This document shows, piece after piece, positions 38,663-64,000 of a DNA stretch of 64,000 nucleotides (its first letter is position 1; each line of letters starts with the position of its first letter). Below the pieces are notes generated by a model, which did not search any database, was not told the origin of the DNA, and saw nothing but the letters and a program-made list of their open reading frames with translations. Both the position numbers and the translations under genes were made by a program. The DNA comes from Promethearchaeia archaeon (lineage in GTDB: Archaea; Asgardarchaeota; Lokiarchaeia; Sigyniarchaeales; SOKP01): positions 16 through 64,015 of the forward strand of contig JAWOCD010000022.1 of the NCBI GenBank assembly GCA_046483985.1. The letters are read 5' to 3'.

Positions 38663-38694
38663 TTTATTTTTATTTTTTTCGAATTTATCTTCCG

Positions 38695-39688: not shown

Positions 39689-39865
39689 TTTTCATTTCTA
39701 TATAATTATAGGGTTTGGCATTTTTTTATTTTGCTATACATAGTCCCGAAATTTTAATAACTTAAAGATTCTGTCTATTTCTTGTCCATAGATATTATTT
39801 CTGCAATAGTTGCAGTTTTATTTTTAAGTATAAAAAGGATTTATATATTGAGAACAACTGGGGTT

Positions 39866-40681
39866 GTGATAAAATTGAATTTAACCGAGGAACAAATTGA
39901 GAGATACTCTAGACAAATCGTACTTAAAGAAGTGGGAGGAAAAGGTCAAGAAAAATTATTAGATTCTACTGTGACTATTTTGGGATTAGGTGCTCTAGGC
40001 TCTCCTACTGCATATTATTTAGCTGCAGCAGGTATAGGCCGTTTAAGATTAATTGATTTTGACAACGTGGAACTATCTAACTTACATAGGCAAATATTGC
40101 ATTCCACTCGAAATATTGATAAAAAAAAGACTTCAAGCGCATACGAGAGATTAAAACAAATTAATCCGGACTGTGAAATAGAACTCGTTGAGAAGAGAAT
40201 CACCCCAAATAATGTAAAAGGGATTATAACAAATTCAGATTTTTTAATTGAGGGTTCTGATAATCTTCCCACCAAAATGTTGATTAATGATGCTTGTATT
40301 AATTTAGGAATACCCTTTACGATTGCTGGTGTACTAAGATTCCATGGGCAAATATTAACCGTAGTTCCTGAAGAAAAAACCACTTGCTATAGATGTTTGT
40401 TTGGAGGTAATGAAGAATCCTCCCAAGCGATGTCTTGTTCACGTGCTGGCGTAATCGGATTAATTCCAGGGGTTATGGGATGCTTTGAATCTATGGAAGC
40501 GATCAAATATATTTTAGATATGGGAGATCTAATAACAAATAGAATTCTGTATGTAGATTTACTGAAAATGAGTTTTAATTTCATCGATGTCCATAGAAAT
40601 AAGGGTTGCGAAGCTTGTGGAGATAAACCAAAGCATTTAATTTCAAATTATGACTACGGATTTGATAAATTATGTCTTTAA
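39866..40681 (+). CDS. E1-like adenylyltransferase (MoeB/ThiF/UbaA/TtuC family, no rhodanese domain)
   Basis: EEQIERYSRQI and ILGLGALGSPTAYYLAAAGIGRLRLIDFDNVELSNLHRQ (GxGxxG) are present, with Zn pairs CYRC and CEAC. I prefer the GTG at 39866 (MIKLNLTEEQ) to the listed TTG at 39782, which adds a hydrophobic non-homologous leader. Confidence 0.85.
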   Translation: MIKLNLTEEQIERYSRQIVLKEVGGKGQEKLLDSTVTILGLGALGSPTAYYLAAAGIGRLRLIDFDNVELSNLHRQILHSTRNIDKKKTSSAYERLKQINPDCEIELVEKRITPNNVKGIITNSDFLIEGSDNLPTKMLINDACINLGIPFTIAGVLRFHGQILTVVPEEKTTCYRCLFGGNEESSQAMSCSRAGVIGLIPGVMGCFESMEAIKYILDMGDLITNRILYVDLLKMSFNFIDVHRNKGCEACGDKPKHLISNYDYGFDKLCL

Positions 40682-40920
40682 ATAATTATTCAAAGAAGTT
40701 AGATATAAGGGGTAAAACGTGTCCTATGACCTTTGTATATACTAAGTTAGCTTTAGAGGATTTAAAAAAAGGGGAAATTCTCAAGGTTATTTTGGATTAT
40801 CCTCCAGCTGTGGAAAATATTCCGGAAAACAGTAAAAGACAAAGTTTGGCTGAGACTCTCAAGGTTAAGAAACAAAAATCCCGTTCAAATGAATGGGTAC
40901 TATTATTACAAAAAAAATAA
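40672..40920 (+). CDS. TusA/SirA-family sulfurtransferase (second copy)
   Basis: LDIRGKTCPMTF carries the CPxx motif. It overlaps the E1 gene by 10 nt. Confidence 0.75.
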   Translation: MSLNNYSKKLDIRGKTCPMTFVYTKLALEDLKKGEILKVILDYPPAVENIPENSKRQSLAETLKVKKQKSRSNEWVLLLQKK

Positions 40921-41125
40921 CATCTGTAAACGATGTGGAATTGGTTTCATAAGCAAAATTTGCAGTTATTTTTAAAAAGAACAAAATTTTTCATATCATG
41001 ATTAAAGAACTAATATCTTGAATTCTTTAAAATTTTAGGAGAATCAATTTTACAAAAAAAGCATTTCTATGCAGTTATTGCCACACAACGAGTGATTATT
41101 GACTTAAATTTTATTTATCAATTAA

Positions 41126-41824
41126 GTGGTGAATGGGATTAATATATACAAAAAAGTAAGAAAGAAAATTAATCTAAAATACTATTCAGTGGGTGTTAAA
41201 CTGATAACTAATGAAAATAAAGGGATTAATTCAAATAAGGATTTTAAAGTACCGAAAAATTCGCATAGGTACTGTGAATTTGTTAAAAGAGCTTCAGAAG
41301 GAGAATTTCTCAAAATTTCTAAAGAGAAATTATCTTGTGTAACTTCTCAAATAATGTTGGGGTTCAAGAAACCGAGAAAGATCAAAATGGATATGCGAAT
41401 GGATTTAGACAATCTTGATTCCGTTATATTATTCCCGCTGGATGATTTTCCAACTAAAAATTTTGATAGTATTGTGCTTCGAGTAAATCCAAAACACGCT
41501 ATGGATATTATCGAAGCATATCGAAAGGTATTTCATAAACCCTTAGAGGTAAATTGGGGGTTATATTCAGGTATTTGCAGCGAGATAACTGCTTCGGTTA
41601 TAAAAAATCAAGATATTAATTTTTCGTTTTTATGCTCTGGTTCGAGAATTTATACCGGATTTGATGATTGTGAATTAATGTGTGGTATCTACAATGCATT
41701 GGTTGAAAAGATATTCAAAAAACTAATTGAAATCTCTAATGAGAGAGAAATGGATCTTCAATTAGTTAATGAATTAGATAATTATGAAAATAAAAACTAT
41801 AATAAAGGCAAAATAGAAGAATAA
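41126..41824 (+). CDS. DUF169-like uncharacterised protein, tentative
   Basis: The size (~230 aa) and the pattern ...YSVGVKL...HRYCEFVKRASEGEF...LSCVTSQIMLGF resemble the DUF169 (COG2043) family as I recall it. Confidence 0.4.
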   Translation: MVNGINIYKKVRKKINLKYYSVGVKLITNENKGINSNKDFKVPKNSHRYCEFVKRASEGEFLKISKEKLSCVTSQIMLGFKKPRKIKMDMRMDLDNLDSVILFPLDDFPTKNFDSIVLRVNPKHAMDIIEAYRKVFHKPLEVNWGLYSGICSEITASVIKNQDINFSFLCSGSRIYTGFDDCELMCGIYNALVEKIFKKLIEISNEREMDLQLVNELDNYENKNYNKGKIEE

Positions 41825-41834
41825 AGAGGTAATC

Positions 41835-42677
41835 GTGTTGGAAGACTTTTTAAGATGCTTAGGATGTGGAAGAAAATTAGGGGATAAAGAAGGAAGACAC
41901 TACAATTATTGTTCAGAATGTCTTTTGAATTTAGAATTCCAGATCAATGATTTGGATATTGATACGATAAAAACTAACCTTCAAAAGATCTTAAATTTCT
42001 TTGTATCCGATGTAAATGCCGCATTTAATAAAGACCCAGCAGCTCATTCTCTAATGGAAGTTCTTACAAGTTATCCTGGAATTAAAGCGGTGTTATTATA
42101 TCGAATCGCGCATTTCTTTTGGGATCTTGATATGCCTTTTGTCCCTAGATATCTTTCAGAAGTGGGGAGAGAAAGTACGGGAATTGAAATCCATCCTGGG
42201 GCTCGAATAGGGAGCGACTTTTTTATCGACCACGGTGGTGGAGTAGTAATAGGAGAAACTGCCGAGATAGGGGATAATGTGACCATTTATCAAGGAGTTG
42301 TTTTGGGAGGTACAACTCTTGATCCGGTTAAGCGCCATCCTACTTTGGGTAATAATGTTGTTGTGGGGACGGGAGCAAAACTCCTAGGTCCTATTACGAT
42401 TGGAGACAATGTTAGAATCGGTGCAAATTCCGTCGTTGTAAAGGATATTCCTTCAAACTCTGTTGTGGTAGGAGTTCCAGGAAGGGTTATCTCAAGAGAA
42501 GGTGAAAAGATAGATAAAATAGATCTCAAACATGGGGATCTTCCCGACCCTTTATCTATTACCTTATCTACTTTAAATTCGAGAATAGAATTCCTAGAAA
42601 AAAAGATACTTGAAAGTAAGGAACAAAATAAGGAAGAAATAAAAATAGAATATGGTAAATATGGCGGTGGTATATGA
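41835..42677 (+). CDS. cysE: Serine O-acetyltransferase (CysE) with an N-terminal CxxC...CxxC extension
   Basis: DPAAHSLMEVLTSYPGIKAVLLYRIAH, GIEIHPGARIG and hexapeptide repeats are present. The N-terminus carries CLGCG...CSEC. Confidence 0.85.
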   Translation: MLEDFLRCLGCGRKLGDKEGRHYNYCSECLLNLEFQINDLDIDTIKTNLQKILNFFVSDVNAAFNKDPAAHSLMEVLTSYPGIKAVLLYRIAHFFWDLDMPFVPRYLSEVGRESTGIEIHPGARIGSDFFIDHGGGVVIGETAEIGDNVTIYQGVVLGGTTLDPVKRHPTLGNNVVVGTGAKLLGPITIGDNVRIGANSVVVKDIPSNSVVVGVPGRVISREGEKIDKIDLKHGDLPDPLSITLSTLNSRIEFLEKKILESKEQNKEEIKIEYGKYGGGI

Positions 42678-42805
42678 AGAATGCGGACAATTATAATGAT
42701 TATTGGGTCCAAATTAAAATTGATACAATTATTGCAAACATCTTTAAAAGACTTCGCTTCCCATTTTCTTATAAATTATTCTAAAAATTAAAGTCGTGAT
42801 TTACA

Positions 42806-43732
42806 ATGGTAAAAGTATATAGCAATATTATTAAGGCAATAGGAAATACGCCTTTAGTAAAATTTAACAGAATTACGGAAGATATTAAACCTAATATTTA
42901 CGGTAAAGTCGAAGCATTTAATCCAGGAGGAAGCGTGAAAGATAGAATTTGTATGGCAATGATAGAGAAAGCAGAAGAAAAAATAATAAAAAAAGACACT
43001 ACAATTGTTGAACCGACTTCCGGAAACACTGGAATCGGCTTGGCTTTAGTCTGCGCTGTGAAAGGATATAAACTTATCCTCACAATGCCTGAAAGCATGT
43101 CTGAAGAAAGGCGAAGGATATTAAAAGCATATGGTGCAGAATTAATATTAACTCCCGCAGAAAGAGGAATGAAAGGAGCAATCGAAAAAGCGGAGCAATT
43201 AAATGAAGAAAACGGAAAAGTTTATATACCTCAGCAATTTAAGAATGAAGCGAATCCCGAAATCCATCGGAAAACGACCGGAAGAGAAATTATCGAGGAT
43301 CTAGACGGCAAAGTGGATGGTTTTGTAGCGGGTATAGGAACTGGAGGCACTATTACGGGAGTAGGAGAGGTTTTGAGAAAAGAACTCGGGGAACAGGTAA
43401 AAATTTATGGAGTAGAACCAAAGAATTCCCCGGTACTTTCGGGAGGACAACCAGGATCTCATAAGATTCAAGGGATTGGTGCGGGTTTTGTACCAGATGT
43501 ATTGAACACTAAAATCTATGATGATGTAATCCAAGTTGAATCTGAGGACGCACGAGATACCTCAAGAAAATTAGCGAAATTAGAAGGTATTTTCGCGGGT
43601 ATATCTTCTGGAGCGGCTACTTGGGCAGCATTAAATATTGCTAATGAAGAATTTGATGAGGGAGAAAATATAGTTATCATCCTTCCAGACACTGGAGAAC
43701 GCTATTTAACAACAGATTTATTTAATCTCTAA
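42806..43732 (+). CDS. cysK: Cysteine synthase / O-acetylserine sulfhydrylase (CysK/CysM family)
   Basis: IGNTPLV, NPGGSVKDRI (PLP Lys), TSGNTGIGLA and GIGTGGTITG are present. Confidence 0.9.
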   Translation: MVKVYSNIIKAIGNTPLVKFNRITEDIKPNIYGKVEAFNPGGSVKDRICMAMIEKAEEKIIKKDTTIVEPTSGNTGIGLALVCAVKGYKLILTMPESMSEERRRILKAYGAELILTPAERGMKGAIEKAEQLNEENGKVYIPQQFKNEANPEIHRKTTGREIIEDLDGKVDGFVAGIGTGGTITGVGEVLRKELGEQVKIYGVEPKNSPVLSGGQPGSHKIQGIGAGFVPDVLNTKIYDDVIQVESEDARDTSRKLAKLEGIFAGISSGAATWAALNIANEEFDEGENIVIILPDTGERYLTTDLFNL

Positions 43733-43926
43733 ATATTTCTAATAGAAATAAGGATTTAATTAAATCAACGAAATAATCAATTTTAACAAAGTTTTTTTTA
43801 CTAAAAGATTCCAAAATTGGGTGTATTGATATTCAGCATCTATTAGATAACTATACAAATGTTAAATATTTTTATTCGGAAAAAGAATTTGGACTTGAAT
43901 CAAGTCAAATTTTACCCAATTTTAGA

Positions 43927-44946
43927 TTGGCATATGAAACTTATGGAGTATTAAATAAATCTAAGACTAATGCTATCCTAATTTTTCATGCTCTTTCTGG
44001 AAGCTCTCATGTATATAGTGATGATACTGAAATAGGCGGGTGGTGGGATGAAGTCGTTGGTCCAAATCTTCCTATTGATACAAATAAATATTTTGTAATT
44101 TGTGCTAACATGTTAGGAAGTTGTTATGGCTCGACTGGTCCCGCATCCACTAATTCTAAGACTAAAAAACCTTACGGACTTGAATTTCCCATAATTACCA
44201 TTCATGATATGGTAAAAGCAAATAAACTTTTGATTGACCATTTGGGAATTGAGAGTCTCTTAGCTGTTGTTGGAGGGAGTATGGGAGGGATGCAAGCGCT
44301 CGATTGGGCAATTAGTTATCCCAAAATTACATACGCCGTCATTCCCATTGCAACTGCTGCTTACGCTACTACCTTTAATATCGCCTTTAATGAAGTGCAG
44401 AGACAAGCTATTTTTTCTGATCCCAATTGGAACCAAGGAAACTATTATGATAACCATTCTCCTCCCAATCAAGGTTTAAGATTGGCTCGACAAATTGGGC
44501 ACATTACTTATCTCAGTGAGGAATCTATGAAGGAAAAATTTGGAAGAGATCTCCGACACAATCCGAAATTAGTTTTCCAATTTACCGAAGAATTTGAGGT
44601 AGAAAGTTATTTACAATATAAAGGATCTTCTTTTACAAAAAGATTTGATGCCAATTCGTATCTCTATTTAACGAAAGCAATCGATTATTTTGATATACGA
44701 GAAAACGGAAATTTAGCACATCCACTTTCCAATTTAGAAACTATACAATTTTTAGTAATATCATTTACCTCTGATTGGTTATATCCCACCACGCAGGCAA
44801 GGGAAATTGTATGTGCTCTAAAAGCAAATGGTATAAAAACGAGCTTCGTGGAAATTGATTATAATTACGGACATGATTCTTTCCTGCTTGATTGTAAGGA
44901 TTTCAAAGTGATTTTATCCAATTTCTTGGAGAATCTTGAATTGTGA
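43927..44946 (+). CDS. metX: Homoserine O-acetyltransferase (MetX)
   Basis: AYETYGVLN...NAILIFHALSGSSH, GGSMGGMQAL (nucleophile Ser) and the C-terminal YGHDSFLL are present. The conserved N-terminal block continues upstream of the listed TTG start (see findings). Confidence 0.85.
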   Translation: MAYETYGVLNKSKTNAILIFHALSGSSHVYSDDTEIGGWWDEVVGPNLPIDTNKYFVICANMLGSCYGSTGPASTNSKTKKPYGLEFPIITIHDMVKANKLLIDHLGIESLLAVVGGSMGGMQALDWAISYPKITYAVIPIATAAYATTFNIAFNEVQRQAIFSDPNWNQGNYYDNHSPPNQGLRLARQIGHITYLSEESMKEKFGRDLRHNPKLVFQFTEEFEVESYLQYKGSSFTKRFDANSYLYLTKAIDYFDIRENGNLAHPLSNLETIQFLVISFTSDWLYPTTQAREIVCALKANGIKTSFVEIDYNYGHDSFLLDCKDFKVILSNFLENLEL

Positions 44947-44958
44947 TGTGATAAAAAG

Positions 44959-45570
44959 ATGTTGCTAAGAACAGATTTAAAGATTATTTATACTCTAATA
45001 GAACCAAACTCTAAAGTCTTAGATTTAGGCTGCGGAGAAGGAGTACTATTATACGAGTTAACTGAAAATAAACAAATTGAGGGATTAGGGATAGAAATCT
45101 CGATAGAAAGGATAAAAAAGTGTATGGAATACGGGGTTTCAGTTGTGCAAGAAGATTTAAATAAGGGGTTAAAAGATTTTAAAAAAAATTCATTTGACTA
45201 CGTTATATTAAGCCAAACACTTGAGGAAATCGCCAAACCAGTATATCTTATCAAAGAAATGATGAGGGTAGGTCGGAAGTGTATTATTAGCTTTGAAAAT
45301 TTAGCCTATTGGAAGAATAGGATACGGTTTTTATTTACAGGGAGTTTGAGAGGGAATAACTCGAAAGGGAATAACTCGAAAAAAGATTTTTTATACAATA
45401 ATAAAAAGCAGCAGTTATTGAGCATAAACAAATTCCTTAGATTCTGTGAATATAAAGATTTTATTATAAGTAAAGAAATTTATCTAAATCAAGATACCCT
45501 CAATTTTGGAAAAATATTTCCTAACTTTTTCTGTAAAACATCTATATTCGTTTTAAAAGGAAAAGAATAA
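44959..45570 (+). CDS. metW: MetW-like methyltransferase-fold protein (partner of MetX)
   Basis: RTDLKIIYTLIEPNSKVLDLGCGEGVLL...FDYVILSQTLEE has typical MetW organisation. It lies immediately downstream of metX. Confidence 0.72.
   Translation: MLLRTDLKIIYTLIEPNSKVLDLGCGEGVLLYELTENKQIEGLGIEISIERIKKCMEYGVSVVQEDLNKGLKDFKKNSFDYVILSQTLEEIAKPVYLIKEMMRVGRKCIISFENLAYWKNRIRFLFTGSLRGNNSKGNNSKKDFLYNNKKQQLLSINKFLRFCEYKDFIISKEIYLNQDTLNFGKIFPNFFCKTSIFVLKGKE
45352..45381 (+). repeat. Perfect in-frame 15-bp tandem duplication (gggaataactcgaaa x2) inside metW
   Basis: Seen directly. It encodes GNNSKGNNSK. Confidence 0.9.
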
Positions 45571-45614
45571 ACATATTTACATAAAAAGAAATTTAATCCG
45601 AGGTATTTTACTTA

Positions 45615-46778
45615 ATGAACATCAATTGGGAAAATATACGAAAAAATCAATTTCCATCACTAAAAAATCAGATTCACATGAAAGCCGCTGGAGGATCCCC
45701 CATGTGCAAGTCTGCCTATAGCAAGGGCACAAAATATTTTAGGAATATTTATAAAAAGGGAGATATCTTCTGGGACCACTACTTTAAGGAAATGGAGGAA
45801 GCTAGAGAGTTGGTTGCAGATTATTTAAACTCGAATACAAATGAAATAAGTTTTCTAATTAACACATCCTCGGGTATTAATATCATATCCCATCTACTGA
45901 ATCAAGGAACTATACTTTATCCAGAGGGTGAGTTTCCCTCCTCAATTCTCCCCTTCAAGTTGAAGGATTTTAATTGCATAAAAATTAGATCGAAAAATAA
46001 GAAATATCGAGCCGAAGATATTGAGGAAACTGTTCATTCAAATCACGATTATTTAATCCAAAGTTACGTTCAATATCTCACGGGATTTAAGCAAGAATTA
46101 GGTAAAATTGGGAGGATTACCTACAAGAATAAAGTTATTTATATAATAAATGCGACTCAAGCCTTTGGTGCTTTACCTCTGGATGTTAAAAGACAAAAAA
46201 TTGATATATTAGTGGCATCTGGCCTTAAATGGGCGTGTTGTGGCTACGGAGCCGCCATTCTCTATGTTAAAGAAAAAATTCTCGAAGATAAAAACTTACC
46301 TTGTCTCAGTTGGTTGAGCGTGAGAAATAAGTTTGCAATGGATAATGATAATACTGATGTAATCAAACAAACAAAAGCAATGGACAGTTTTGGGGGTACT
46401 CCCAATTTTCCCGCTTTAATGGCATTAAAAGGAAGTTTAGAATTGATAAAAGATATCGGTGCGGGTGATATCAATGTAGGCATCAGAGAAATTTACAAGA
46501 GGATAAAATTTCTCACAAATAAGTTTATACGAGAACTTCAAGACCTGGGTCACAAAATAATTAGCCCCTTAGATTTAAAGTATCGTTCGGGTATAATTAC
46601 AATGCAGCATCAGAACGCGAAAGCGATATATAAGGAGTTATTAAAAAATAACATCCATATCTCACTTAGAAATTATCCCTCCTCCCAAAATAAGGATTTA
46701 TTACGATTTGCCCTCCATTACTATAACAATTTAGAAGATATCCGGAACGTAGTTTCGGTTTTAAAGAGGTGTGGATAA
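45615..46778 (+). CDS. Class V PLP-dependent aminotransferase / cysteine-desulfurase-like enzyme
   Basis: NATQAFGALPLDVKRQKIDILVASGLKWACCGYGAAILYV has the PLP-Lys in an S-G-x-K-W context, typical of the class V fold. Confidence 0.65.
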   Translation: MNINWENIRKNQFPSLKNQIHMKAAGGSPMCKSAYSKGTKYFRNIYKKGDIFWDHYFKEMEEARELVADYLNSNTNEISFLINTSSGINIISHLLNQGTILYPEGEFPSSILPFKLKDFNCIKIRSKNKKYRAEDIEETVHSNHDYLIQSYVQYLTGFKQELGKIGRITYKNKVIYIINATQAFGALPLDVKRQKIDILVASGLKWACCGYGAAILYVKEKILEDKNLPCLSWLSVRNKFAMDNDNTDVIKQTKAMDSFGGTPNFPALMALKGSLELIKDIGAGDINVGIREIYKRIKFLTNKFIRELQDLGHKIISPLDLKYRSGIITMQHQNAKAIYKELLKNNIHISLRNYPSSQNKDLLRFALHYYNNLEDIRNVVSVLKRCG

Positions 46779-46781
46779 AAA

Positions 46782-48452
46782 ATGAAAAGAGAGGTAAAAT
46801 CTCATAATTGGAGATTTCTTACCCCTATTGGAGGCTTCCACGGAGTTTCTGCTGTTTTTCCCAGATTTCAAGATATTATTGATTACGAAGAGGACCGATT
46901 TTCAGTTTACCAAGGTTATCCTAGATTTGTTACACATCCTGCTATAAGGAATTTGGAAGATCAATGGAAAGAAAAATTCGATGCAGTGAACGCTATAAGT
47001 TTCCATAGTTATCGGTCATCTATTTTCTTTTTGATTGATTACTTTTTCAGGAAAGGCGATAAGATTTACATCGACTCCAGATTAACTTCAAAAATATTCA
47101 CGCTTCTAAATCAAAGTTTTCCCGATATCTTATCTAAAGTAACGAAAGTATCTGAAGCAGATATTCTAATATTTAACAAACCAGTAACTCAAGTTAAAAG
47201 GTCTTTTGAAGATAAGATTCTAATTTCTCTATTGGACAACCCAATGGACGAAAAAGATTTCAAATTTAAAGGGGATTTCTTAATTTGTCATGATCCATTA
47301 AACGATATAGGAGTAATTTTGAAATTCAATGATCAATTCAACAATTTGACGCTTCTCCGAAGACATTGCGGATTTAATGTAAGTTCACGAAAAATCTGTG
47401 GAAATAATGAAACTCTAATTCGAGAAAAATCAAAACTAAAGGATCAATTGAAAAAGCAAATTACCCATTTGGAAAATGTTGAGACGAACTATTGTTATTT
47501 TTATCCCTCTGGCATGGCTGCAGTGTTCATATCGATTTTTTCACTTTTATCAAGCCAAAAGCCGAATTTTATTGGTTTAGGTTCTTTATATGTGGATACT
47601 CTAAAGATTCTAGAAAAATGGTCAGAAAAGTATGGTTTATCGAAGACAGACTTTATTCGTGATGCAATTGAGAAAACTTTAAAGGAACGTATTAGCGAAA
47701 AAACCGCAGGCGTTATTGTTGAAATTCCCTCTAATCCCTTAATCCAACTAGTAGATATAAAAGAAGTAATCAATACAGTCCATTTATATGGCGGAAAAGT
47801 GATTGTAGACAATACTATTGCCACACCTTATAATTTTAATCCATTTGATTATGGAACCGATATCGTAGTTCACAGTTCAACAAAATTTTTAAACGGGAAA
47901 AATGACCATATTGGAGGAATAATCATTACAAAGGAGAAAGAATTGGGTGAAAAAATTAGAAAATTTAATAATCTCTTTGGATTAGATATGGCATTCAATG
48001 ATATAAGGACATTATCTGAAAATATCAAGGGGTTCGAAAGACGGATGGAAAGGATTAATAAGAATACCGAAATCATAGCCAAATACCTAAATAATCATGA
48101 ATATGTGGGGAAGGTATATTATCCCTCCTTAGCTGATAATCCCGATCGGGAAATTTTGAAAAAATATCTAAAGGGAGGAAGCGGTCTTCTTAGTTTTGTC
48201 TTAAAAAATTCAAATATCGAAGTTGCACGTCAATTTTATAATAATGTTTTACCTCCCATTTTAAAAGGTCCTAGCCTCGGTTCAGAAAGAAGTTTGTTAT
48301 CTCCCTACGTAATGATGACACACTATAAATATTCCGAAACAGAATTAAAACATTTAGGGTTAAATCGCTATTTAATGCGTCTATCCGTGGGAACGGAACC
48401 TTTTGAAGATATTATATACAGCTTAAAGTATGCTTTAAATTCTTTAAAATGA
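46782..48452 (+). CDS. Cys/Met-metabolism PLP enzyme (MetY/MetB/MetC family) with a ~230-aa N-terminal extension that looks like a degenerate copy of the same fold
   Basis: The C-terminal part has YFYPSGMAAV, VVDNTIATPYNFNP and the PLP-Lys block HSSTKFLNGKNDHIGG. The N-terminal part has YQGYPRFVTHPAIRNLEDQW...AISFHSYRSS, which is paralogue-like and has no Lys block. Confidence 0.7.
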   Translation: MKREVKSHNWRFLTPIGGFHGVSAVFPRFQDIIDYEEDRFSVYQGYPRFVTHPAIRNLEDQWKEKFDAVNAISFHSYRSSIFFLIDYFFRKGDKIYIDSRLTSKIFTLLNQSFPDILSKVTKVSEADILIFNKPVTQVKRSFEDKILISLLDNPMDEKDFKFKGDFLICHDPLNDIGVILKFNDQFNNLTLLRRHCGFNVSSRKICGNNETLIREKSKLKDQLKKQITHLENVETNYCYFYPSGMAAVFISIFSLLSSQKPNFIGLGSLYVDTLKILEKWSEKYGLSKTDFIRDAIEKTLKERISEKTAGVIVEIPSNPLIQLVDIKEVINTVHLYGGKVIVDNTIATPYNFNPFDYGTDIVVHSSTKFLNGKNDHIGGIIITKEKELGEKIRKFNNLFGLDMAFNDIRTLSENIKGFERRMERINKNTEIIAKYLNNHEYVGKVYYPSLADNPDREILKKYLKGGSGLLSFVLKNSNIEVARQFYNNVLPPILKGPSLGSERSLLSPYVMMTHYKYSETELKHLGLNRYLMRLSVGTEPFEDIIYSLKYALNSLK

Positions 48453-48579
48453 GGGAAATTTCGATATCTGCTAGATTTGCATTTAATTTTAAATCAGATG
48501 AGTGAATTACATAAATAGAAATAAATAAATTGACCCCCGAAGATTTTTATATATCTCTAATTACAATTAATTACAATCT

Positions 48580-48867
48580 ATGAGAACTGTCAAGATCAAA
48601 TTTTTATCGTTGCTCAAGGACTTAATTGGATCTGAGGAAATTGAGCTTTCGATTCCGGAAAACTCCACGATAAAAGAACTATTAGAAGAATTAAATTCAC
48701 AGTATGGCGAAAAATTTAAAGATATTCTTTATGAGAAACCAAATAAGTTAAATAAGGGGATCCTTATTGGACTAAATGGAAAAAATATCCGTGATATTGA
48801 TAACTTAGATACAAAGATCGAAGCGGAAGATGAAATCACCTTTATGCCAGCGATTGCGGGAGGATAG
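48580..48867 (+). CDS. MoaD/ThiS-family ubiquitin-like sulfur-carrier / SAMP-like protein ending in Gly-Gly
   Basis: The 95-aa protein shows a beta-grasp pattern (VKIKFLSLLKDLIG...INGKNI...DEITFMPAIAGG*) and a terminal GG. Confidence 0.75.
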   Translation: MRTVKIKFLSLLKDLIGSEEIELSIPENSTIKELLEELNSQYGEKFKDILYEKPNKLNKGILIGLNGKNIRDIDNLDTKIEAEDEITFMPAIAGG

Positions 48868-48900
48868 TTAGCAGATATACTTATTTAATTTTTAAAAGAG

Positions 48901-49851
48901 GTGTTTATAATTAATAAGGAGGAAAGTAAAATAAATATCGGTCATCTTTCAACAGCATACCATACAAATTTTATTTTAATGCAAGAAAAAAAGTTAGCGG
49001 AGGATCTGAATAAAAAAATCACTTGGCATCAATTTGGTACTGGACCAGCTATGGTGCAAGCGTTTCAGAGAAATGAGTTAGATATGGGGTACATGGGATT
49101 ACCTCCCGCCATAATCGCCATTGAAAAGGGGATTCCGATTAAATGCGTTGCCGGAGGACATGTTGAGGGAACTATTATGGTGGCTCCTCAAAAATATAAA
49201 ACTTTTTCAGACTTTGGTCAAGATTTAAACAGATGTTTTTCCCAATTCGAAGGAAGCTCCATTGGCGTTCCCAGTAAAGGTTCTATTCACGACATTATCT
49301 TGAATTTTTATCTTGATAAATTCGAACTTTTTGAGAAAATTGAGGTTTTGAATTACGGACAGGCAGAATTTATAGCTTATGATATGCAACAGGGTATTTT
49401 AGGTGGTGGTGTGGGAACTCCTGCTTTAGCTGCTTTTTCTTATACTATATTAAATTCCCATATTATTATACCCCCGGATTGTTTGAGGAAGAATAACCCA
49501 AGTTATGGTATATTTTTTCATCAAGATATGATAAATAATCAACCTAAAGTTGTAAGATCATTCTTAAAACACCATAAAAGAGCATCTATTATGCTAAGAA
49601 ATTCCCCAGACGAAGCAGCAGAGTTGATAACAAAAAGTTTTCCCCTAATGAATAAAAAATATGTGAAATCTGTATTAGAAATCTCTCCAAAGTATTGCAT
49701 TGACCTACCAGAGGGATATATATCTTCTACTATGAAATTTGTGGATGATCTCTATGTTTTAAATTATATTAAGAAACCTTTGAAAGAAAATGAGATTTTT
49801 CTACTAGATTTTGTCGAAGAAGTTCATCCAGAACGCCACCACTATCTCTAA
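48901..49851 (+). CDS. NMT1/THI5-SsuA-like (type II periplasmic-binding-protein fold) protein without a signal peptide
   Basis: IGHLSTAYHTNFIL...WHQFGTGPAMVQAFQRNELDMGYMGLPPAIIAIEKGIPIKCVAG resembles NitT/TauT/THI5-like binding folds. No N-terminal hydrophobic leader is present. Confidence 0.5.
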   Translation: MFIINKEESKINIGHLSTAYHTNFILMQEKKLAEDLNKKITWHQFGTGPAMVQAFQRNELDMGYMGLPPAIIAIEKGIPIKCVAGGHVEGTIMVAPQKYKTFSDFGQDLNRCFSQFEGSSIGVPSKGSIHDIILNFYLDKFELFEKIEVLNYGQAEFIAYDMQQGILGGGVGTPALAAFSYTILNSHIIIPPDCLRKNNPSYGIFFHQDMINNQPKVVRSFLKHHKRASIMLRNSPDEAAELITKSFPLMNKKYVKSVLEISPKYCIDLPEGYISSTMKFVDDLYVLNYIKKPLKENEIFLLDFVEEVHPERHHYL

Positions 49852-56505: not shown

Positions 56506-59304
56506 TTACTCTACAATTTTCATAGGTTTTCCGTGATGTTCTGGAATTGGTTCGGATCCACACTCAGCACCCATCCAACATACTAAGTTATCATCTTCTT
56601 TAACCATGGGTTTACCACAATGAGTAGGTAGTTCTTGTTCATAATCACATTCCGAGCATTTTAATTTTCCCATTTCTTGACTCACCTCCCTTTCTTTTAT
56701 TTTACTTTGTTCATTTTCTTGTTGATGTGTAATCAATTGTTCTTCATGATCTGATATCTCCGATTTCCTTAGAGCATCACTTGAAAAGGATTTGGATAGA
56801 TATTGAGAATCTGGTTGAATGTTTTTTCTCCGTAACAAATTGGAGTTGGTAACGACAGTTACCGAACTTGAAGCCATTGCAATCTGTCCTACTACCGGGT
56901 GAGCAAACCCAATTATAGCGAGAGGTAACGCAATAGTGTTATAAATAAATGCCCAAAAGAGATTTTGTCTAATTTTTTTGAATGTTTCCCTTGACAATTT
57001 TAACGATGAAACTACTCCAGATAACTTTCCGCTGACTAATGTAATATCTCCTGCTTCTATAGCAATATCGGTACCAGTTCCGATGGAAATTCCAACATTT
57101 GCCGCCGTTAATGCAGGAGCATCGTTGATTCCATCTCCTACCATTGCAACCATTTTACCTTCTTTTTGTAAGTCTTGTATTTCTTCGACTTTTTCATTGG
57201 GTAGAACTTCAGCAATAACTCTTGAAATACCTGCCTTTCTAGCAATTGCTTTTGCAGTACGCTCGTTATCTCCCGTAAGCATAATTGTTTCAATCCCCAT
57301 ACTTTTTAACTCGGCTATAGCGGCAACGGAATCATCTTTAATTGCATCGGCAATTGCTAAAATACCCGCTAATTTACTATCTAGAGCCACTAAAATGACA
57401 GTCTTCGCTTCTTCTTCACGTTTTTGTATTAAATTATTAACCAAGTTATAATCTATATTATATTGATCCATTAATTTTTTACTTCCAACCAATATTGTTG
57501 ATTTTGACTTCGATTTTCTTGTACCCTTGACACCTTTCCCTGTGATGGATTCAAAATCCGAAATATCATAGAATTCAATATCTTTTTCCTTTGCCTTTCT
57601 TAAGACCGCATCCGCTAATGGATGTTCGGAGCCCGCTTCAATACTTGCTGCTAGTTTGAGTACCTCTTCTTTTGAAAAATTATTTGTAGAATGAATATCA
57701 ATGACTTCTGGGGTTCCTTTGGTGATTGTTCCCGTTTTATCAAAGACTATGGTTTCTAATTTCTCAAAGGTTTGAATTGCCTCTCCATGTCGTATTAAAA
57801 TTCCATTATTCGCCCCCATCCCGCTACCGACCATTAATGCCGTTGGGGTAGCAAGACCTAAAGCACAAGGACACGCTATAACGAGGGTAGCGATAAATGC
57901 AGATAAAGCTAAGGTTATTAATCCCAGATCAATATCTATCCAAGGTATTACATCTTGGAAGGGAGCTATTATACCAATCATAAAATCCGGAATAAACATC
58001 CATAGGATGAGAGCCATAATTGCTAGGAATAAGACCACGGGAACAAAATAGCCCGTAATCTTATCGGCATAATTTTGAATCGGCACCTTAGATCCTTGAG
58101 CCTCTTCGACTAAGCGAATGACTTGGGATAGAAAGGTTTCATCTCCTACTTTTGTGGCTTTAACCTTAAGAAGTCCACGCTGGTTTATCGTTGCACCTAT
58201 GACCTCATCTCCTTCTGTTTTTTTAACGGGAGTTGACTCGCCTGTTGCCATTGACTCGTCGACGGAGCTTTTTCCCTCAATGATAAGTCCATCTGTAGGT
58301 ATTTTTTCTCCGGGCCGGATTACCATTATATCTCCTTTCTTTAATTCATCAACCGGAATTTCTTGTTCTTTTCCGTTTCTGATGATTTTTGCTGTTTTGG
58401 CACCTAATTCTAATAATTTACGAATTGCCTGGGATGCCCTTCCTTTTGCTTTATTTTCAATGTATCTTCCCATAAGATGGAAGGCCATTATCATAGCTCC
58501 CACACCCGTATAATTCATTACAGGGATTATAAATGAGAGGGGGCCAGAAAGAAAGGCGGAGAGAGTACCTAATGCTATTAGTGTATCCATATTAGCGTTT
58601 TTATTTCGGGCTGCGTTAAAAGCCGAAGAAAGAGTCTTATTGCCCGCCCAAAATATGGGAAAAATACTCAATATTATCATTCCCACACTAAAAACTAATT
58701 CATTTGGCCATGTGATACCCAAGAACATCTCAAGAAACATCCATATGGTAACGGGAATCGTAAAGATCCAGACGATAATCAATCGTTTCCTCGCTTCCTC
58801 AAATTTTTTCTGTTCTTCTGTAATTTCTTTCTCATACCCTCCTCTAGCCGATTTCATATCAAACTTTTCTACTGCTCTGTAGCCCGTACTATTGATCGTA
58901 TTCTCAATATCAGAGTAATTAAGTACTTCGGGATCATAAAGAATTGTAGCTTTTTCAGTTGCTAAGTTCACATTTACCTCGGCAATACCTTCGGTTTTTG
59001 AGAGTGCTTTTTCAACTGTTTGAACACAGGAAGCACAATTCATACCGGCTATTTTCACGACTATCTTTTCCACTTGAGGACTAGCTTTATAACCCGTTTT
59101 TTCTATTGTGTCAATTATGTTCCTCTTTTTTAACTTATTTGGGTTATATTCGAAATAAGCTTTATTCGTGGCAAGATTGACATTAACATCCTTGATACCG
59201 TCTGCTTTATCTAATTCTCTTGTAATTGTTTGAGCACATGAAGCACAATGCATTCCGTGAATATCCAATGAAGATTTTTTAAATTCTTCTGTTGTTTTTT
59301 TCAT
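56506..59304 (-). CDS. copA: Copper-translocating P1B-type ATPase (CopA) with two N-terminal HMA domains and an extra C-terminal Cys/His domain
   Basis: It has GMHCASCA and GMNCASCV (HMA), [21 protein letters not shown] and GDGINDAP. The C-terminal 54 aa carry KCSECD...THCGKPM...CWMGAEC...EHHGKPM. Confidence 0.95.
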
Positions 59305-59397
59305 TAAAAGGCACCATTTATTTTTTTAGATTTTTATATATAATACTCCTGAGTATATGTCTCATAATATTATTGAAATTAAATATTCTAATGGATT

Positions 59398-59694
59398 TTA
59401 GATCTCTGCACCGCAAAATGTACAATATGAAGCGTCTTCATCTTCTATGTGATTTCCACAATTTGGACAGATTAATTTCTTTTCGGAGTGCTGTGTTGTT
59501 TTCTTTGGTCTTTTAACCGGTTCAACTTGTTCTTTCTTAACATCTGATGTCTGACTATGCGTCAAGAAATAAAGTAATATTATTATCAACGTAACCAACA
59601 AAATTAAACCAATTAGAATAAAAACCCCTAGATCGGGTGTCCAATCAAAATCCATCATCTGATCCATATGTTCACCTTCATGGAAGTTAACCAA
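59398..59694 (-). CDS. Single-pass membrane protein with a His/Met-rich N-terminus and a C-terminal zinc ribbon
   Basis: It has HEGEHMDQMMDFDW, one TM helix, and CPNCG...CTFCG. Confidence 0.5.
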   Translation of the reverse strand: MVNFHEGEHMDQMMDFDWTPDLGVFILIGLILLVTLIIILLYFLTHSQTSDVKKEQVEPVKRPKKTTQHSEKKLICPNCGNHIEDEDASYCTFCGAEI

Positions 59695-59705
59695 TTTTTT
59701 TCACC

Positions 59706-59993
59706 TTAACCTGTGTGAGATTCTTTTTCTCTTGATTGATTGATTTTGTAGTTCTTTCTAACAAGTAAATAAACTAATAAACCTACTACATTAAAGATCA
59801 GAGTAATTATTAACCACATCTCCGCGTTATCGATCCCTCTTTTTAGTGCGTCTTTATGTACATAATATGCGATTATTATGGATGTAGCGATAATAATTGC
59901 CCACCCAAGCACCATAAAAATCCACCAATATGGTCCGAATACATCAAACCACCAATCCATCATGTGATAACCATCATATTCATTTAATATCAA
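59706..59993 (-). CDS. Small three-TM membrane protein (PLD-N-terminal-like / YHKDALKRG motif)
   Basis: It has the N-terminus GYHMMDWWFD and three hydrophobic helices. YVHKDALKRGIDNAEMWLIITLIF is typical of a widespread small membrane domain. Confidence 0.5.
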   Translation of the reverse strand: MILNEYDGYHMMDWWFDVFGPYWWIFMVLGWAIIIATSIIIAYYVHKDALKRGIDNAEMWLIITLIFNVVGLLVYLLVRKNYKINQSREKESHTG

Positions 59994-60028
59994 AATTCTT
60001 CACCTATTTTGTATGGAAGAGTATATAT

Positions 60029-60715
60029 TTAAAAGTAATGATTATTATTTTTAATCTGTAAAATTTCATGGTCTCTTTTTCGGGCGGCCCGGGAAATCAT
60101 CGCTTTTATTATCCCTGCCTGATCTATGTTCCGAGATTTGACAACTTTGAACCCTGCAGATTTGAGATTGGAAATTTGGTCCCTTGCAAGGTGAAATCCG
60201 CGCATATTAGTTGTTAACGGGTCAAGAACCTTTAAAAGTAAATTCAAAAGTTCATTATACCCTAAACCGTGCTCTATCTGCACCAAAAAACCTTCTGTTC
60301 TTAATACCTTTTTCACTTTTTTAAGTCCCTTTATGGGATTTGGCACAGAGCAAAATACGCAAGTTGAAGTAACGAAATCAAATGAATTTTTATCAAAATA
60401 ATTGTCTAGGTGTTCGATATCCCCCTCTCTTATTTCTTTTACATAATTGAGATTATATTTCTTAATTTTGGATCGTGCAGATTTCAACATCTCGGGGCTG
60501 AAATCTAAAATCGTGAGATTAACGGAGGGATCATAATGAAATAAATTCAATCCTGTGCCAACTCCTACTTCTAAAATATTACCTCTTAAGGATCGGAACA
60601 GTTTTCTCTCAGAAGAAAAGATATGTTCCATTACTCTATTTTCAAGGTCGTAATATTTGGCGTGTTTGTTGTAAATCTCTTCAGCATTCTTTTCTCGAGC
60701 GATTAAATTAGACAC
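60029..60715 (-). CDS. Class I SAM-dependent methyltransferase
   Basis: ILEVGVGTGLNL is motif I, followed by FDFVTSTCVFCSV. Confidence 0.75.
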   Translation of the reverse strand: MSNLIAREKNAEEIYNKHAKYYDLENRVMEHIFSSERKLFRSLRGNILEVGVGTGLNLFHYDPSVNLTILDFSPEMLKSARSKIKKYNLNYVKEIREGDIEHLDNYFDKNSFDFVTSTCVFCSVPNPIKGLKKVKKVLRTEGFLVQIEHGLGYNELLNLLLKVLDPLTTNMRGFHLARDQISNLKSAGFKVVKSRNIDQAGIIKAMISRAARKRDHEILQIKNNNHYF

Positions 60716-60841
60716 TTTAAAATCATCGTATTATTAATTTAATTTACTTGGTATTATTTTATTAATATATATTTATGAATATATACTTTATGGTTATGAA
60801 TTTTAGAGTACATATTTAAAAATTTAGATAATTTTTAATTA

Positions 60842-61297
60842 TTGAGAAGGAATTTTATGAAGAACAAAAAAATAGAAGTTAAAAATCTGACAAAATTTTA
60901 CGCTCTTTCCTTGTTACGTGTGAAAGAAGCAGTAACGGGTTATTATATATTAAAACGTTTAAAGAATGATTTGGGAAGAACAGCAAGCCCTACCTACATC
61001 TATAAATTTTTAGATGATCTTAAAGCAAAAGGATATCTAGAAGATGTTGAGACCCCCAACTCAAAGAAATCTAAAGGGTCCCGTTTAACCCCTGATGGAA
61101 AAAAATTCGTGGATAAAATCTTAAACCGTTTTAATAATATAATTGAAGCCGCAATCCAAGACAAAATAAAAGTTTGTTCAAGCTGTGGAGTGAAACTTTA
61201 TAATAGCTCTCATAAAGAAATTATAGATGGAAATACAATGTATTTCTGTTGTAAACATTGTGCAAAAGCTTATAAAGAATCAAAAAATCACCCGTAA
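60842..61297 (+). CDS. PadR-like winged-helix regulator fused to a C-terminal TRASH/YHS-type metal-binding domain
   Basis: VTGYYILKRLKNDLGRTASPTYIYKFLDDLKAKGYLE is PadR-like. CSSCGVKLYNSSHKEIIDGNTMYFCCKHCAKAY fits the TRASH spacing C-x2-C-x19-C-x3-C. Confidence 0.65.
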   Translation: MRRNFMKNKKIEVKNLTKFYALSLLRVKEAVTGYYILKRLKNDLGRTASPTYIYKFLDDLKAKGYLEDVETPNSKKSKGSRLTPDGKKFVDKILNRFNNIIEAAIQDKIKVCSSCGVKLYNSSHKEIIDGNTMYFCCKHCAKAYKESKNHP

Positions 61298-61399: not shown

Positions 61400-62584
61400 T
61401 TATTTTTCTAACCGATTTCCACAATTATAACACTTGATATCACTAGATCTATTTATTGCAGAACAAACAGGACAAATAACCATATCAACCTGATTGGGAT
61501 CTCCAGAACGTTCTTCTGTCGATCGTGGAAGGGGACGAGCATGGGATCTCCTATCCTCTCCTGTACTCTGAGTAAATTCGGGTGAAATTTCCTCTTCATG
61601 ATTTTCTTTGTCTTCTGGCATTGCTAATGGATCCTCAACGGAAACAATTTGTGGTCGTTCTTTATCCTCTTGTTCTCGTAGGTAGGAGGTAATATCCCTT
61701 GCTTCAAATCTTATTTCGGCGGGAGGCTCCTCGCCTTTTTGCACTATTTTTGCATATTCCTCATCTAATTTTAATAAATTGAAACAGTTATGACATCTAA
61801 ATAGATGCGGCATCCCAATATTCCTTGTCTTAGCCCAATTTGCCCAGCAAGACATATGCGCAATGGTTTTACAGTTAGGACATCGAAAGAGGGTTTCATC
61901 TGTTTCTTTAAAACAAATTGAGCAAGTCTCTGGCTCTTTGAGAATTTCGACATTATCTGCTAAATTTTCATAGAATGCTTTATCCTTCTGGAATACTGTT
62001 AAGGATTTATTGTAATCAAGTCTATGTTTCTCCGCCAATTGTAACAAGGTTTCATGGAATTCATCTCTGGTGGCAACTTCATAGACTTTTCCTCCGCAGA
62101 ATTCAACCAGTCGTTCTAAATTCTTATGATTATGGGGTTGGCCAAGATGAATGACATCGATGATAAAAGGGATATCTTTTACTTTCTCTACAAGGTTTTT
62201 TAGAACAAGAAAATATTGATCTGAGATTTTTACGCTATTTTTATCGATCAAAATTAGTAATCGAAAGACCTTATCGGAAATCTTTTTAAATACGTCAATA
62301 ATGAATGTGGCGGCCACAAATATACCACCAGCGATATTGGACTTCACTCGAGAATCGCGATATTCATTTAATGCATCGATAATATTATTAAAATCGAAGG
62401 TGAAGTCCTCTAAATATGCGGGCCCGCTCTGCGTGAAAATGATGATATTGAATCTATCAGAGGGATCAATTCCTAACTTTTTATTTGCAAACTCCTCTAA
62501 CCCGTCATAGAGATTTTTTTTCTTTATTGCTTTAGACGAAAGCGCGATAAAGAGAAGAGTATCTTCCGAATTAGTCTGACCCAT
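61400..62584 (-). CDS. vWA-like domain protein with a C4HC3 RING/PHD-type zinc finger and a C-terminal zinc ribbon
   Basis: The N-terminal ~200 aa have vWA-like alternation (RFNIIIFTQSGPAYLEDFT...GGIFVAATF...RLLILIDKNS) but no DxSxS MIDAS motif. Residues 221-267 read C-x2-C-x10-C-x2-C-x4-H-x2-C-x17-C-x2-C. The C-terminus has CPVC...CYNCG. Confidence 0.6.
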   Translation of the reverse strand: MGQTNSEDTLLFIALSSKAIKKKNLYDGLEEFANKKLGIDPSDRFNIIIFTQSGPAYLEDFTFDFNNIIDALNEYRDSRVKSNIAGGIFVAATFIIDVFKKISDKVFRLLILIDKNSVKISDQYFLVLKNLVEKVKDIPFIIDVIHLGQPHNHKNLERLVEFCGGKVYEVATRDEFHETLLQLAEKHRLDYNKSLTVFQKDKAFYENLADNVEILKEPETCSICFKETDETLFRCPNCKTIAHMSCWANWAKTRNIGMPHLFRCHNCFNLLKLDEEYAKIVQKGEEPPAEIRFEARDITSYLREQEDKERPQIVSVEDPLAMPEDKENHEEEISPEFTQSTGEDRRSHARPLPRSTEERSGDPNQVDMVICPVCSAINRSSDIKCYNCGNRLEK

Positions 62585-62781
62585 ACTATAATTATAATTG
62601 TTAATCTCTTATTTAATATATTTTAAATCGAATCCGGAAACGATTCATTTAAATACCGAAATAAAAACAAGGAGGTCTAAAGTTAATAATATTTAATGAT
62701 AAAAAATCGGACTGGATACTGATTTCTTGTTTCTTCGAAAAGGATTTGGAAGAAAGAGATTATCGGGTCTGTGACACGTAC

Positions 62782-62833
62782 GCTCCACTATATGAATAAT
62801 AAATGCTCCACTATATGAATAATAAATGCTCCA
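62782..62833. repeat. 23-bp tandem repeat, 2.26 copies (gctccactatatgaataataaat)
   Basis: Seen directly at 62782-62804, 62805-62827, and a partial copy at 62828-62833. Confidence 0.9.
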
Positions 62834-63537: not shown

Positions 63538-63822
63538 ATGGGATACGAACTTGATAAAGGTGCTCATTCGGTGTATTCATTAAACTACCATTACATCTGT
63601 TGTGTAAAATCTCGAAGAAAAATATTCGATACCGATGAAATAATCAATAGATTAAAAGAAATTAATATATCGTTAGCGGAAAAAAATGATATTAAAATTC
63701 TTAATCAAGAAACCGATCTTGATCACATACACATTATATTCAAACCGAGTTATCTCTTGGTTACGACCGGTCAAGTTACATTAGATCAATTGAAAAAATA
63801 TGTTGACTCACAAGGTGAATAG
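63538..63822 (+). CDS. tnpA: IS200-type Y1 (HUH) transposase TnpA, abnormally short (94 aa)
   Basis: It has YSLNYHYICCVKSRRKIF, the HUH motif DHIHIIF, and the C-terminal KKYVDSQ (catalytic-Tyr region). About 35-40 residues normally found between the HUH motif and the C-terminal helix are absent. Confidence 0.7.
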   Translation: MGYELDKGAHSVYSLNYHYICCVKSRRKIFDTDEIINRLKEINISLAEKNDIKILNQETDLDHIHIIFKPSYLLVTTGQVTLDQLKKYVDSQGE

Positions 63823-63825
63823 AAA

Positions 63826-64000
63826 GTGCAATTAAGTCAAAAAATTCGGATATATCCTACGGAAGAACAATTACAAGTACTTTGGGATTTATCGGAAAAA
63901 TGCCGTTTGATATATAATTTTGCACTTTCGGATCGCATCAACACTTGGAAAAACCAAAAGAAAAAACCAAAGCAGGAAAGAAAATACATAACATACACAC
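63826..64000 (+). CDS. tnpB: TnpB (OrfB) RNA-guided nuclease, N-terminal 58 codons only (3'-partial)
   Basis: The GTG at 63826 gives VQLSQKIRIYPTEEQLQVLWDLSEKCRLIYNFALSDRINTWKNQ..., the typical TnpB N-terminus (K-x-R-I-Y-P-T-x-E-Q...G-x-x-R-x-x-Y-N). The frame is open to the window end. Confidence 0.8.
   Translation, partial: MQLSQKIRIYPTEEQLQVLWDLSEKCRLIYNFALSDRINTWKNQKKKPKQERKYITYT

Follow-up and report, generated by a model that had tools for sequence, protein, structure and literature searches.

RING E3 ligases and docking subunits built on vWA domains (p44, p34, Rpn10) characterise the ubiquitin, transcription-repair and proteasome machines of eukaryotes. Among archaeal RING E3s, the validated enzyme of Caldiarchaeum needs I30 and W58 for activity, and its linchpin residue R69 matters as well (PMC5654768), while a Helarchaeial E1/E2/RING cascade is active in vitro (bioRxiv 10.1101/2023.07.25.550441). 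Here we analyse a gene near the end of a 64,000-nt stretch of DNA from a Promethearchaeia archaeon (GenBank contig JAWOCD010000022.1, C9 in our numbering; hereafter the window), whose 394-aa product, called P0001, represents an uncharacterised protein family. As judged from alignments and predicted structures, this family joins a vWA domain that has lost its metal-ion-dependent adhesion site (MIDAS), a RING-type two-zinc finger and a terminal zinc ribbon. We tentatively read P0001 as a modular RING-type ubiquitin-ligase-like adaptor, the most likely of the readings considered, with a likelihood that we place somewhat below even.

The C4HC3 finger

Residues 221-267 of P0001 read CSIC-x10-CPNC-x4-H-x2-C-x17-CHNC, which bears out the C4HC3 ligand order and spacing called in an earlier note on the window. 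In an alignment of 40 homologues (37-70% identity), all eight ligands (C221, C224, C235, C238, H243, C246, C264, C267) are invariant, as is W250, and the full ligand pattern was found in 79 of 79 related loci, many of which hold two copies. The pattern is not due to chance, because the eight ligands are invariant across homologues of this divergence and present in all 79 loci. The same note had singled out a Trp after the sixth ligand. Indeed, W247 is there in P0001, but the position varies, with Trp in most members and L, G or F in others, and the invariant Trp of the finger is instead W250, four residues beyond ligand 6 on the central helix. I223, after the first Cys, and H265, at the 'CPxC' position, are each at least 90% conserved, and so is the aromatic F262 two residues upstream of ligand 7. 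The spacing of four residues between ligands 4 and 5 is one over the classical RING range.

An AlphaFold model of the finger alone (residues 195-325, 34 sequences from related loci; mean per-residue confidence, pLDDT, 81.4) has a beta-beta-alpha order of secondary structure that fits a cross-brace RING. Its best Foldseek matches were RING-H2 domains in structures with E2~Ub, namely RNF12 (6w9d_B, prob 0.99, TMt 0.61) and RNF165 (5d0m_C, prob 0.98, TMt 0.64), followed by the C4HC3 RING of Slx1 (7cq3_A, 4xlg_A, 4xm5), TRIM37 and Deltex. C1 and PHD domains aligned only in part, and no zinc-ribbon pair appeared among the finger-only matches. A double zinc ribbon was thus rejected, since the model and the fold search both give RING folds. 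In a Pfam scan of the 40 members, Prok-RING_1 was matched by 39 (at E <0.05, best E 4.7e-7), zf-RING_16 by 24, PHD by 18, VWA_2 by 14, zf-RING_2 by 12 and SLX1_C by 11; these matches mostly lie under the curated cut-offs. A paralogue in the same genome (C74:71143) scores 29.6 bits on Prok-RING_1, over the cut-off of 29.1. By predicted fold and profile, the finger belongs to the RING/PHD cross-brace superfamily, as the earlier note had it; within that superfamily fold and profiles lean towards RING, and ligand spacing leans towards PHD.

The positions that contact the E2 in RING domains give a mixed picture. I223 is present and W250 invariant, and these correspond to I30 and W58 of the Caldiarchaeum E3; His265 stands at the Pro position and Phe268 at that of the linchpin.

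The ligand spacing raises a second reading, namely that the finger is a PHD-type reader of a peptide tail (histone or other lysine-rich, modified or not) while the vWA domain recruits a partner, which would make P0001 a chromatin or signalling adaptor. The finger fits the formula C-x2-C-x(9-21)-C-x(2-4)-C-x(4-5)-H-x2-C-x(12-46)-C-x2-C exactly, and F262 supplies the aromatic residue two positions ahead of ligand 7. A profile search of the PDB returned the PHD finger of ORC1b as its best match (E 0.002) together with several other PHD fingers, but the Pfam PHD matches in 18 of the 40 members all fall below threshold (P0001 11.4 bits vs 24), and the fold search places PHD entries far down its list, with alignments of only ~28 columns. 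In the whole-chain model described below, strands 232-234 and 241-243 of the finger are followed by an 11-residue helix (residues 244-254) that starts at H243/C246, that is, at ligands 5-6; a long central helix at this place is what RING domains typically have and PHD fingers do not. PHD fingers also go unmentioned in a preprint on Asgard chromatin machinery. We regard a PHD-type reader as improbable.

The vWA domain and its paralogues

A whole-chain AlphaFold2 model of P0001, built on the 40-sequence alignment (mean pLDDT 82.9, pTM 0.74), consists of a compact vWA domain, a helix at 199-208, a small finger domain, helices to about residue 320, disorder over 327-363 and a small ribbon. Residues 6-185 form an alternating beta/alpha domain (pLDDT ~90). 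In the alignment with paralogues, 'IALSSKA' stands in place of the MIDAS motif DxSxS ('ALSSK' at the motif itself), 'LIDKNS' in place of SDG and Ile at the Thr position, so that D114 alone is retained; two distant paralogues of the same genome, at C41 and C66:82718, retain 'DTSRS' and 'SDG'. Model, fold search and alignment thus agree with the vWA-like Rossmann domain and lost MIDAS proposed earlier. Between vWA domain and finger, F204, L208 and A209 of the connecting helix are invariant. The region after the finger contains a strand ('FNLLKLD') and helices at 275-282 and 298-308, with E306 invariant, 'EDP' at 317-319 near-invariant and a pLDDT of 87-94 over residues 301-320. The acidic and Pro-rich linker and the terminal ribbon of the earlier description were likewise found: the linker has a pLDDT <50 over 327-363 and differs in length among homologues, and the ribbon, C371-x2-C374-x10-C385-x2-C388, matches Zn_ribbon_3 (E 5.5e-5) and Zn_ribbon_RanBP (E 0.0014) in Pfam, neither match reaching the cut-off. 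Some subfamilies lack the ribbon.

In a Foldseek search of the whole model against the PDB, TFIIH chains came first, the vWA domain of Rpn10 (2x5n) next and generic vWA proteins after these. The TFIIH chains comprise what we take, with chain length as a guide, to be Ssl1/p44 (7o4i_6, E 3.4e-12; 8ebt_E, 7nvr_6, 6nmi_E) and Tfb4/p34 (7o4k_4, 6nmi_F, 5o85_A). The vWA domain by itself matched p34, p44 and Rpn10 at a TM of ~0.7 (2x5n, TM 0.70). Of the eukaryotic likenesses suggested earlier, that to TFIIH p44 was therefore upheld by fold, with p34 beside it, and that to the Sec23/24 trunk was not: the top 50 Foldseek matches contained no Sec23 or Sec24 chain, only ArnB (8s05_B) at rank 48, and P0001 is without the beta-sandwich, helical and gelsolin domains of that architecture.

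The window's genome (4.06 Mb in 128 contigs, the window being C9:16-64015) encodes at least ten vWA-finger paralogues, among them pairs on C74, C126 and C66. A maximum-likelihood tree resolved three supported core subfamilies and placed P0001, with its 68%-identical relative P0002, on a long branch inside subfamily I. In a related locus (L106:485-7365), three vWA-finger paralogue genes (products of 1109, 399 and 454 aa) lie downstream of a small Ras/Arf-like GTPase gene, all on the same strand, in the order long form, subfamily II gene, subfamily I gene. Because C74:67370-72306 of the window's genome keeps only the first two paralogues of such an array (the long form and the second gene, at C74:67370-70636 and C74:71140-72306), the window gene is a relocated subfamily I copy, and it retains every invariant residue. 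An IS200/IS605-type element lies nearby at 63538-64000, with a 94-aa open reading frame (ORF) for a Y1 transposase and then the start of a TnpB-like ORF that leaves the window; its proximity may matter for P0001 as a relocated paralogue. The long forms of the family (1088-1118 aa) carry an extended Lys/Glu-rich coiled-coil-like tail and a C-terminal domain without any Pfam match.

These arrays also bear on a possible non-catalytic role, in which the paralogues would join through vWA-to-finger contacts into a hetero-oligomeric platform without ligase activity, on the model of the TFIIH p34 vWA domain seated on the RING-like domain of p44, or of the Slx1 RING on Slx4. Ssl1/p44 and Tfb4/p34 are the best whole-chain folds (E 3e-12 to 1e-10 over 300-350 columns), but p44 has the order vWA, C4 finger, C4C4 RING, against vWA, C4HC3 finger, linker, C4 ribbon in P0001, and in this genome Tfb2/p52 was not found and XPD, although present, is unlinked. 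The finger itself points both ways: the C4HC3 RING of Slx1 is among its top matches, SLX1_C is matched in 11 of the 40 members and the linchpin residue is missing, all of which fit a scaffold, whereas the E2-contact Ile and Trp are conserved beyond the needs of the fold. The co-oriented tandem paralogues (the L106 array; the C74, C126 and C66 pairs) are consistent with subunits of one complex. On Pfam Ssl1, the distant MIDAS-bearing paralogues C41:27689 and C66:82718 reach 33.4 and 32.3 bits, more than the 27 required, and one homologue matches Pfam Tfb4 (E 4.7e-7); the Ssl1 link is unspecific, however, because the same two paralogues score higher on VWA_2 (54-56 bits) and have bacterial BatA/BatB-type vWA proteins and Rpn10 as their best PDB sequence matches. 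We consider a scaffold rather unlikely, yet a serious rival to the adaptor reading. A bolder version, which we hold to be quite improbable, is that the products of the tandem genes (the long form with subfamilies II and I, in many cases preceded by a small GTPase gene) form a hetero-oligomeric complex whose vWA-to-RING contacts share their origin with the p44-p34 module and with the docking domain of Rpn10. Such a complex would be an archaeal survivor related to the module that gave rise to these eukaryotic vWA-plus-zinc-finger subunits, and possibly a multi-subunit E3.

By sequence, the only PDB entry that P0001 matched below 0.01 in phmmer was the vWA domain of Rpn10 (E 0.004), which is also a strong fold match. 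A ubiquitin receptor or shuttle can be imagined on this basis, with the vWA domain on the proteasome or on a PAN/Cdc48-type ATPase and the zinc modules binding ubiquitin, and the ribbon does have the NZF/RanBP2-like spacing C-x2-C-x3-N-x6-C-x2-C. Yet just one of the 40 members gives the RanBP-type match, the Asn varies and the ribbon is missing from some subfamilies, so that the case for an NZF ribbon is weak; P0001 has no UIM, and the 79 gene neighbourhoods show no proteasome linkage. An Rpn10-like receptor is in our view very improbable.

Ubiquitin genes, distribution and gene neighbourhood

Neither the window nor the rest of its contig holds an E2 or JAB gene, in line with the earlier note, which had found no E2 or JAMM gene in the window. 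Elsewhere, the genome encodes a complete ubiquitin system of eukaryote-like type (Table 1). There are two active E2s, on C99 and C116, in both of which the HPN...C active site is intact, as are the RING-contacting motifs of loops 4 and 7; a second E1 accompanies the E2 on C116. Five ThiF-family genes were found, two of them adjoining the E2s, along with ubiquitin-family genes that include a GG-ended ubiquitin on C70 and at least ten JAB-domain genes over the Pfam cut-off. The operon on C99 has the order Ub-E1-E2-JAB and no RING gene. The earlier note had named a simple double zinc ribbon in a genome devoid of E2 as the outcome that would refute its reading; the RING-like predicted fold and the two active E2s, along with the E1, Ub and JAB genes, go against that outcome on both counts.

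Two further loci touch on this system. Downstream of the C99 operon (C99:34702-36657), two adjacent genes encode proteins with an N-terminal CxxC zinc ribbon and a ubiquitin-like domain, ending in ...SSTAG and then a short tail. The 584-aa product of C96:7113-8867 (minus strand) combines a UQ_con-like domain (38-111, 41 bits), an RWD domain (416-508) and a C-terminal C4HC3 finger, CVIC...CPHC-x4-H-x2-C...CGFC, in a layout that recalls FANCL or RWD-RING E3s; this fusion links the finger type of P0001 to ubiquitin-system folds.

The invariant ligands and W250, the RING-H2 fold matches, the Prok-RING_1 profile, the conserved Ile and Trp, the genomic Ub/E1/E2/JAB genes, the C96 fusion and the docking-type vWA domain together make the adaptor reading plausible, if a little more doubtful than not. 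On this reading, the MIDAS-less vWA domain would dock a substrate or partner, as do those of p44, p34 and Rpn10. The cross-brace finger would bind two zinc ions and present a RING-H2-like surface (Ile223, Trp250 and His265 at the 'CPxC' position), and a charged E2~Ub enzyme from the same genome would be recruited by this surface, giving the protein its presumed ligase activity. The zinc ribbon, on its flexible acidic linker, may add a second contact, to protein, ubiquitin or nucleic acid.

Several observations weigh against a ligase-like adaptor. The E-values of the finger in Foldseek are weak (0.03-0.07), as is usual for ~60 residues, and P0001 stays below the cut-off of every Pfam RING model (18-22 bits vs 27-29), Prok-RING_1 giving 18-22 bits where 29.1 are required and zf-RING_16 giving 18.6 where 27.4 are. 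No Arg/Lys linchpin follows the last Cys, and Phe268 stands at the place that R69 takes up in the Caldiarchaeum E3. At the proline of 'CPxC', the subfamily of P0001 has His (His265), and more distant paralogues have Pro. The C-x2-C at ligands 3-4, the x4 to His and F262 answer to the PHD formula, and Pfam PHD is weakly matched in 18 of 40 members. Clustering of the ORFs of the 79 homologous loci brought out no recurrent association with genes for ubiquitin, E1, E2 or JAB. The family is confined to one class, while the ubiquitin system reaches wider in Asgard archaea. Lastly, p44 and Slx1, the closest relatives by fold, use their RING-like domains for protein binding.

The distribution was established at two levels. 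Relatives were sought among 5.8 billion proteins and, exhaustively with phmmer, among 1.84 billion representatives, the latter search yielding 169 relatives; all hits that bear a name, the weakest included, are Loki/Prometh- or Helarchaeota. In a phylum survey of 332 GTDB genomes at least 80% complete, with five candidates scored per genome, the family (E <=1e-30) was present in 127 genomes, all in the class of the window's genome, and absent from 194 of 194 Asgard genomes of other classes. The close core family (E <=1e-79) was counted in about 75 genomes, and the MIDAS-bearing paralogue C66:82718-83917 in 137 of 138 genomes of the class and in none of other classes. The family is thus restricted to one Asgard GTDB class (Lokiarchaeia-type). 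Metagenome-assembled genomes (MAGs) labelled Thor-, Odin-, Hod- and Hermodarchaeota in NCBI (contigs L022, L024, L039, L041, L046 and L049) had given the appearance of a broad Asgard distribution, which we rejected; the labels look wrong, because these MAGs give the very match coordinates of genomes that belong to the GTDB family of the window's genome, where the MAGs themselves sit.

NCBI records name the family proteins hypothetical or 'VWA domain-containing', no NCBIfam model matches P0001, and a reading as a defence system found no support, as PADLOC gave no match. In the papers searched on Asgard signature proteins, ubiquitin and chromatin, no vWA-RING family and no Asgard p44, p34 or Rpn10 is described. 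New here are the finger-only fold, the E2-contact comparison, the ubiquitin inventory, the class restriction, the mislabelled MAGs, the subfamily tree, the tandem array and the FANCL-like fusion. The family unites RING and vWA domain kinds, in many paralogues, in a genome with a complete Ub/E1/E2/JAB system; since the operon of that system has no RING gene and the paralogues are many, the family would be a source of candidate substrate-specific E3s, or of p44/p34-like scaffolds, in the ubiquitin signalling of Asgard archaea. Its confinement to one class makes it weigh less for eukaryogenesis. A class other than the Lokiarchaeia-type one is usually put nearest to the eukaryotes, and the distribution points to an expansion within one lineage more than to a direct ancestor.

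Gene neighbourhoods offered little guidance. Across the 79 loci only lineage synteny (Fwd, Hdr, OFOR, PEPCK), GNAT genes, small GTPase genes and tandem paralogues recur, so that guilt by association is uninformative, and there is no linkage to TFIIH, helicase or proteasome genes. In the window, the earlier note had pointed to an E1-like enzyme and a GG-ended ubiquitin-like protein (Ubl) as conceivable partners. Both genes are present, but they are unlikely partners: judged by sequence, they can be read as a sulfur-carrier system, a ThiF and ThiS/Urm1-like pair 13-21 kb from the target, amid cysteine desulfurase, Cys/Met PLP-enzyme, serine-acetyltransferase-like (hexapeptide transferase) and NMT1 genes, and we rejected them on that ground. 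The whole sulfur-mobilisation cluster spans 37445-49851, with two class-V aminotransferase/cysteine-desulfurase-like genes, ThiF, DUF169, hexapeptide transferase, Cys/Met PLP, ThiS/Urm1-like and NMT1/THI5-like genes.

The immediate neighbours of the target are uninformative (a PadR-TRASH regulator, methyltransferases, a CopA-type ATPase and the IS200/IS605 element). The CopA-type P-type ATPase (56506-59304, minus strand) has two HMA domains and a Cys-rich tail, and with the nearby PadR and TRASH-domain regulator (60842-61297, plus strand) it looks like a copper-resistance module (56506-61297) adjoining the target. Two tandem copies of a 23-nt unit, tggagcatttattattcatatag (minus strand), lie at 62788-62833, in the interval that separates the target gene from a truncated methyltransferase ORF and some 200 nt upstream of the former.

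Table 1. Features of the P0001 gene, of the window and of the ubiquitin system in the same genome (positions refer to the window unless a contig is named)
Feature	Position	Strand	Basis
Complete gene P0001: vWA, RING-type finger, linker, zinc ribbon	61400..62584	-	open ORF, 394 aa; homologues found
vWA (Rossmann-like) domain without MIDAS, residues ~6-185	62030..62569	-	AlphaFold, Foldseek, phmmer, paralogue alignment
Helix 'F-Y-x-N-L-A-D' between vWA and finger, residues 199-209	61958..61990	-	alignment, AlphaFold
C4HC3 cross-brace finger, residues 221-267	61784..61924	-	invariant ligands, finger-only model, Foldseek, Prok-RING_1
Conserved post-finger region, residues 268-320	61625..61783	-	alignment, AlphaFold
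Disordered acidic/Pro-rich linker, residues 321-365	61490..61624	-	pLDDT, alignment gaps
C-terminal C4 zinc ribbon, residues 366-392	61409..61489	-	sub-cut-off Pfam matches, alignment
AT-rich upstream region with TATA-like stretches; putative archaeal promoter	62585..62670	-	inferred from sequence reading
E1-like gene, ThiF family, 299 aa	39782-40681
GG-ended Ubl, ThiS/Urm1-like	48580-48867
E2 genes	C99:32141-32668, C116:24199-24708
E1 gene	C99:30829-32052, C116:19834-21423
Ubiquitin genes	C70:3975-4166, C99:30368-30763

Comparison with known systems

The TFIIH subunits p44/Ssl1 (GTF2H2) and p34/Tfb4 (GTF2H3) resemble P0001 in having, within ~300-400 aa, a compact N-terminal vWA domain without a working MIDAS followed by Cys-rich zinc modules, and both they and the target family occur as paralogue sets. 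Sequence identity is 11-15%, however, and P0001 itself has no Pfam Ssl1 (PF04056) or Tfb4 match. The p44/Ssl1 architecture (vWA, C4 finger, C-terminal C4C4 RING-like C1_4) is not that of P0001, whose C4HC3 finger comes right after the vWA domain and whose C4 ribbon lies at the far C-terminus, and the target family, unlike the TFIIH subunits, is confined to one Asgard class. Membership of TFIIH was rejected on the differing domain order, the lack of a Tfb2/p52 match in the genome, the location of XPD on another contig and the absence of a linked helicase in the 79 loci (the search did not extend to p62, p8 and XPB).

Rpn10/PSMD4 provides the vWA domain closest to P0001 by sequence in the PDB, but it carries UIM helices where P0001 has zinc modules instead, no UIM being seen in the domain scan. 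The C-terminal C4HC3 finger of Slx1 has the same ligand set as that of P0001 and is a top structural match; in Slx1 it accompanies a GIY-YIG nuclease domain, in P0001 a vWA domain. The Slx1 finger binds Slx4.

Among finger profiles, Prok-RING_1 (PF14446) fits best, with 39 of 40 members, P0001 reaching 22 bits, below the cut-off of 29.1. The archaeal ubiquitin-operon RING E3s (Caldiarchaeum srfp, Helarchaeial) differ from P0001 in being small, stand-alone RING-H2 (C3H2C3) proteins, whereas its C4HC3 finger shares a chain with a vWA domain and a zinc ribbon, its gene lies outside the ubiquitin operon and the linchpin Arg is missing. They share with it the presence of an E1/E2/Ub/JAB operon in the same genome, and P0001 and srfp have in common the Ile after Cys1 and the central-helix Trp, both of which are required in srfp (PMC5654768).

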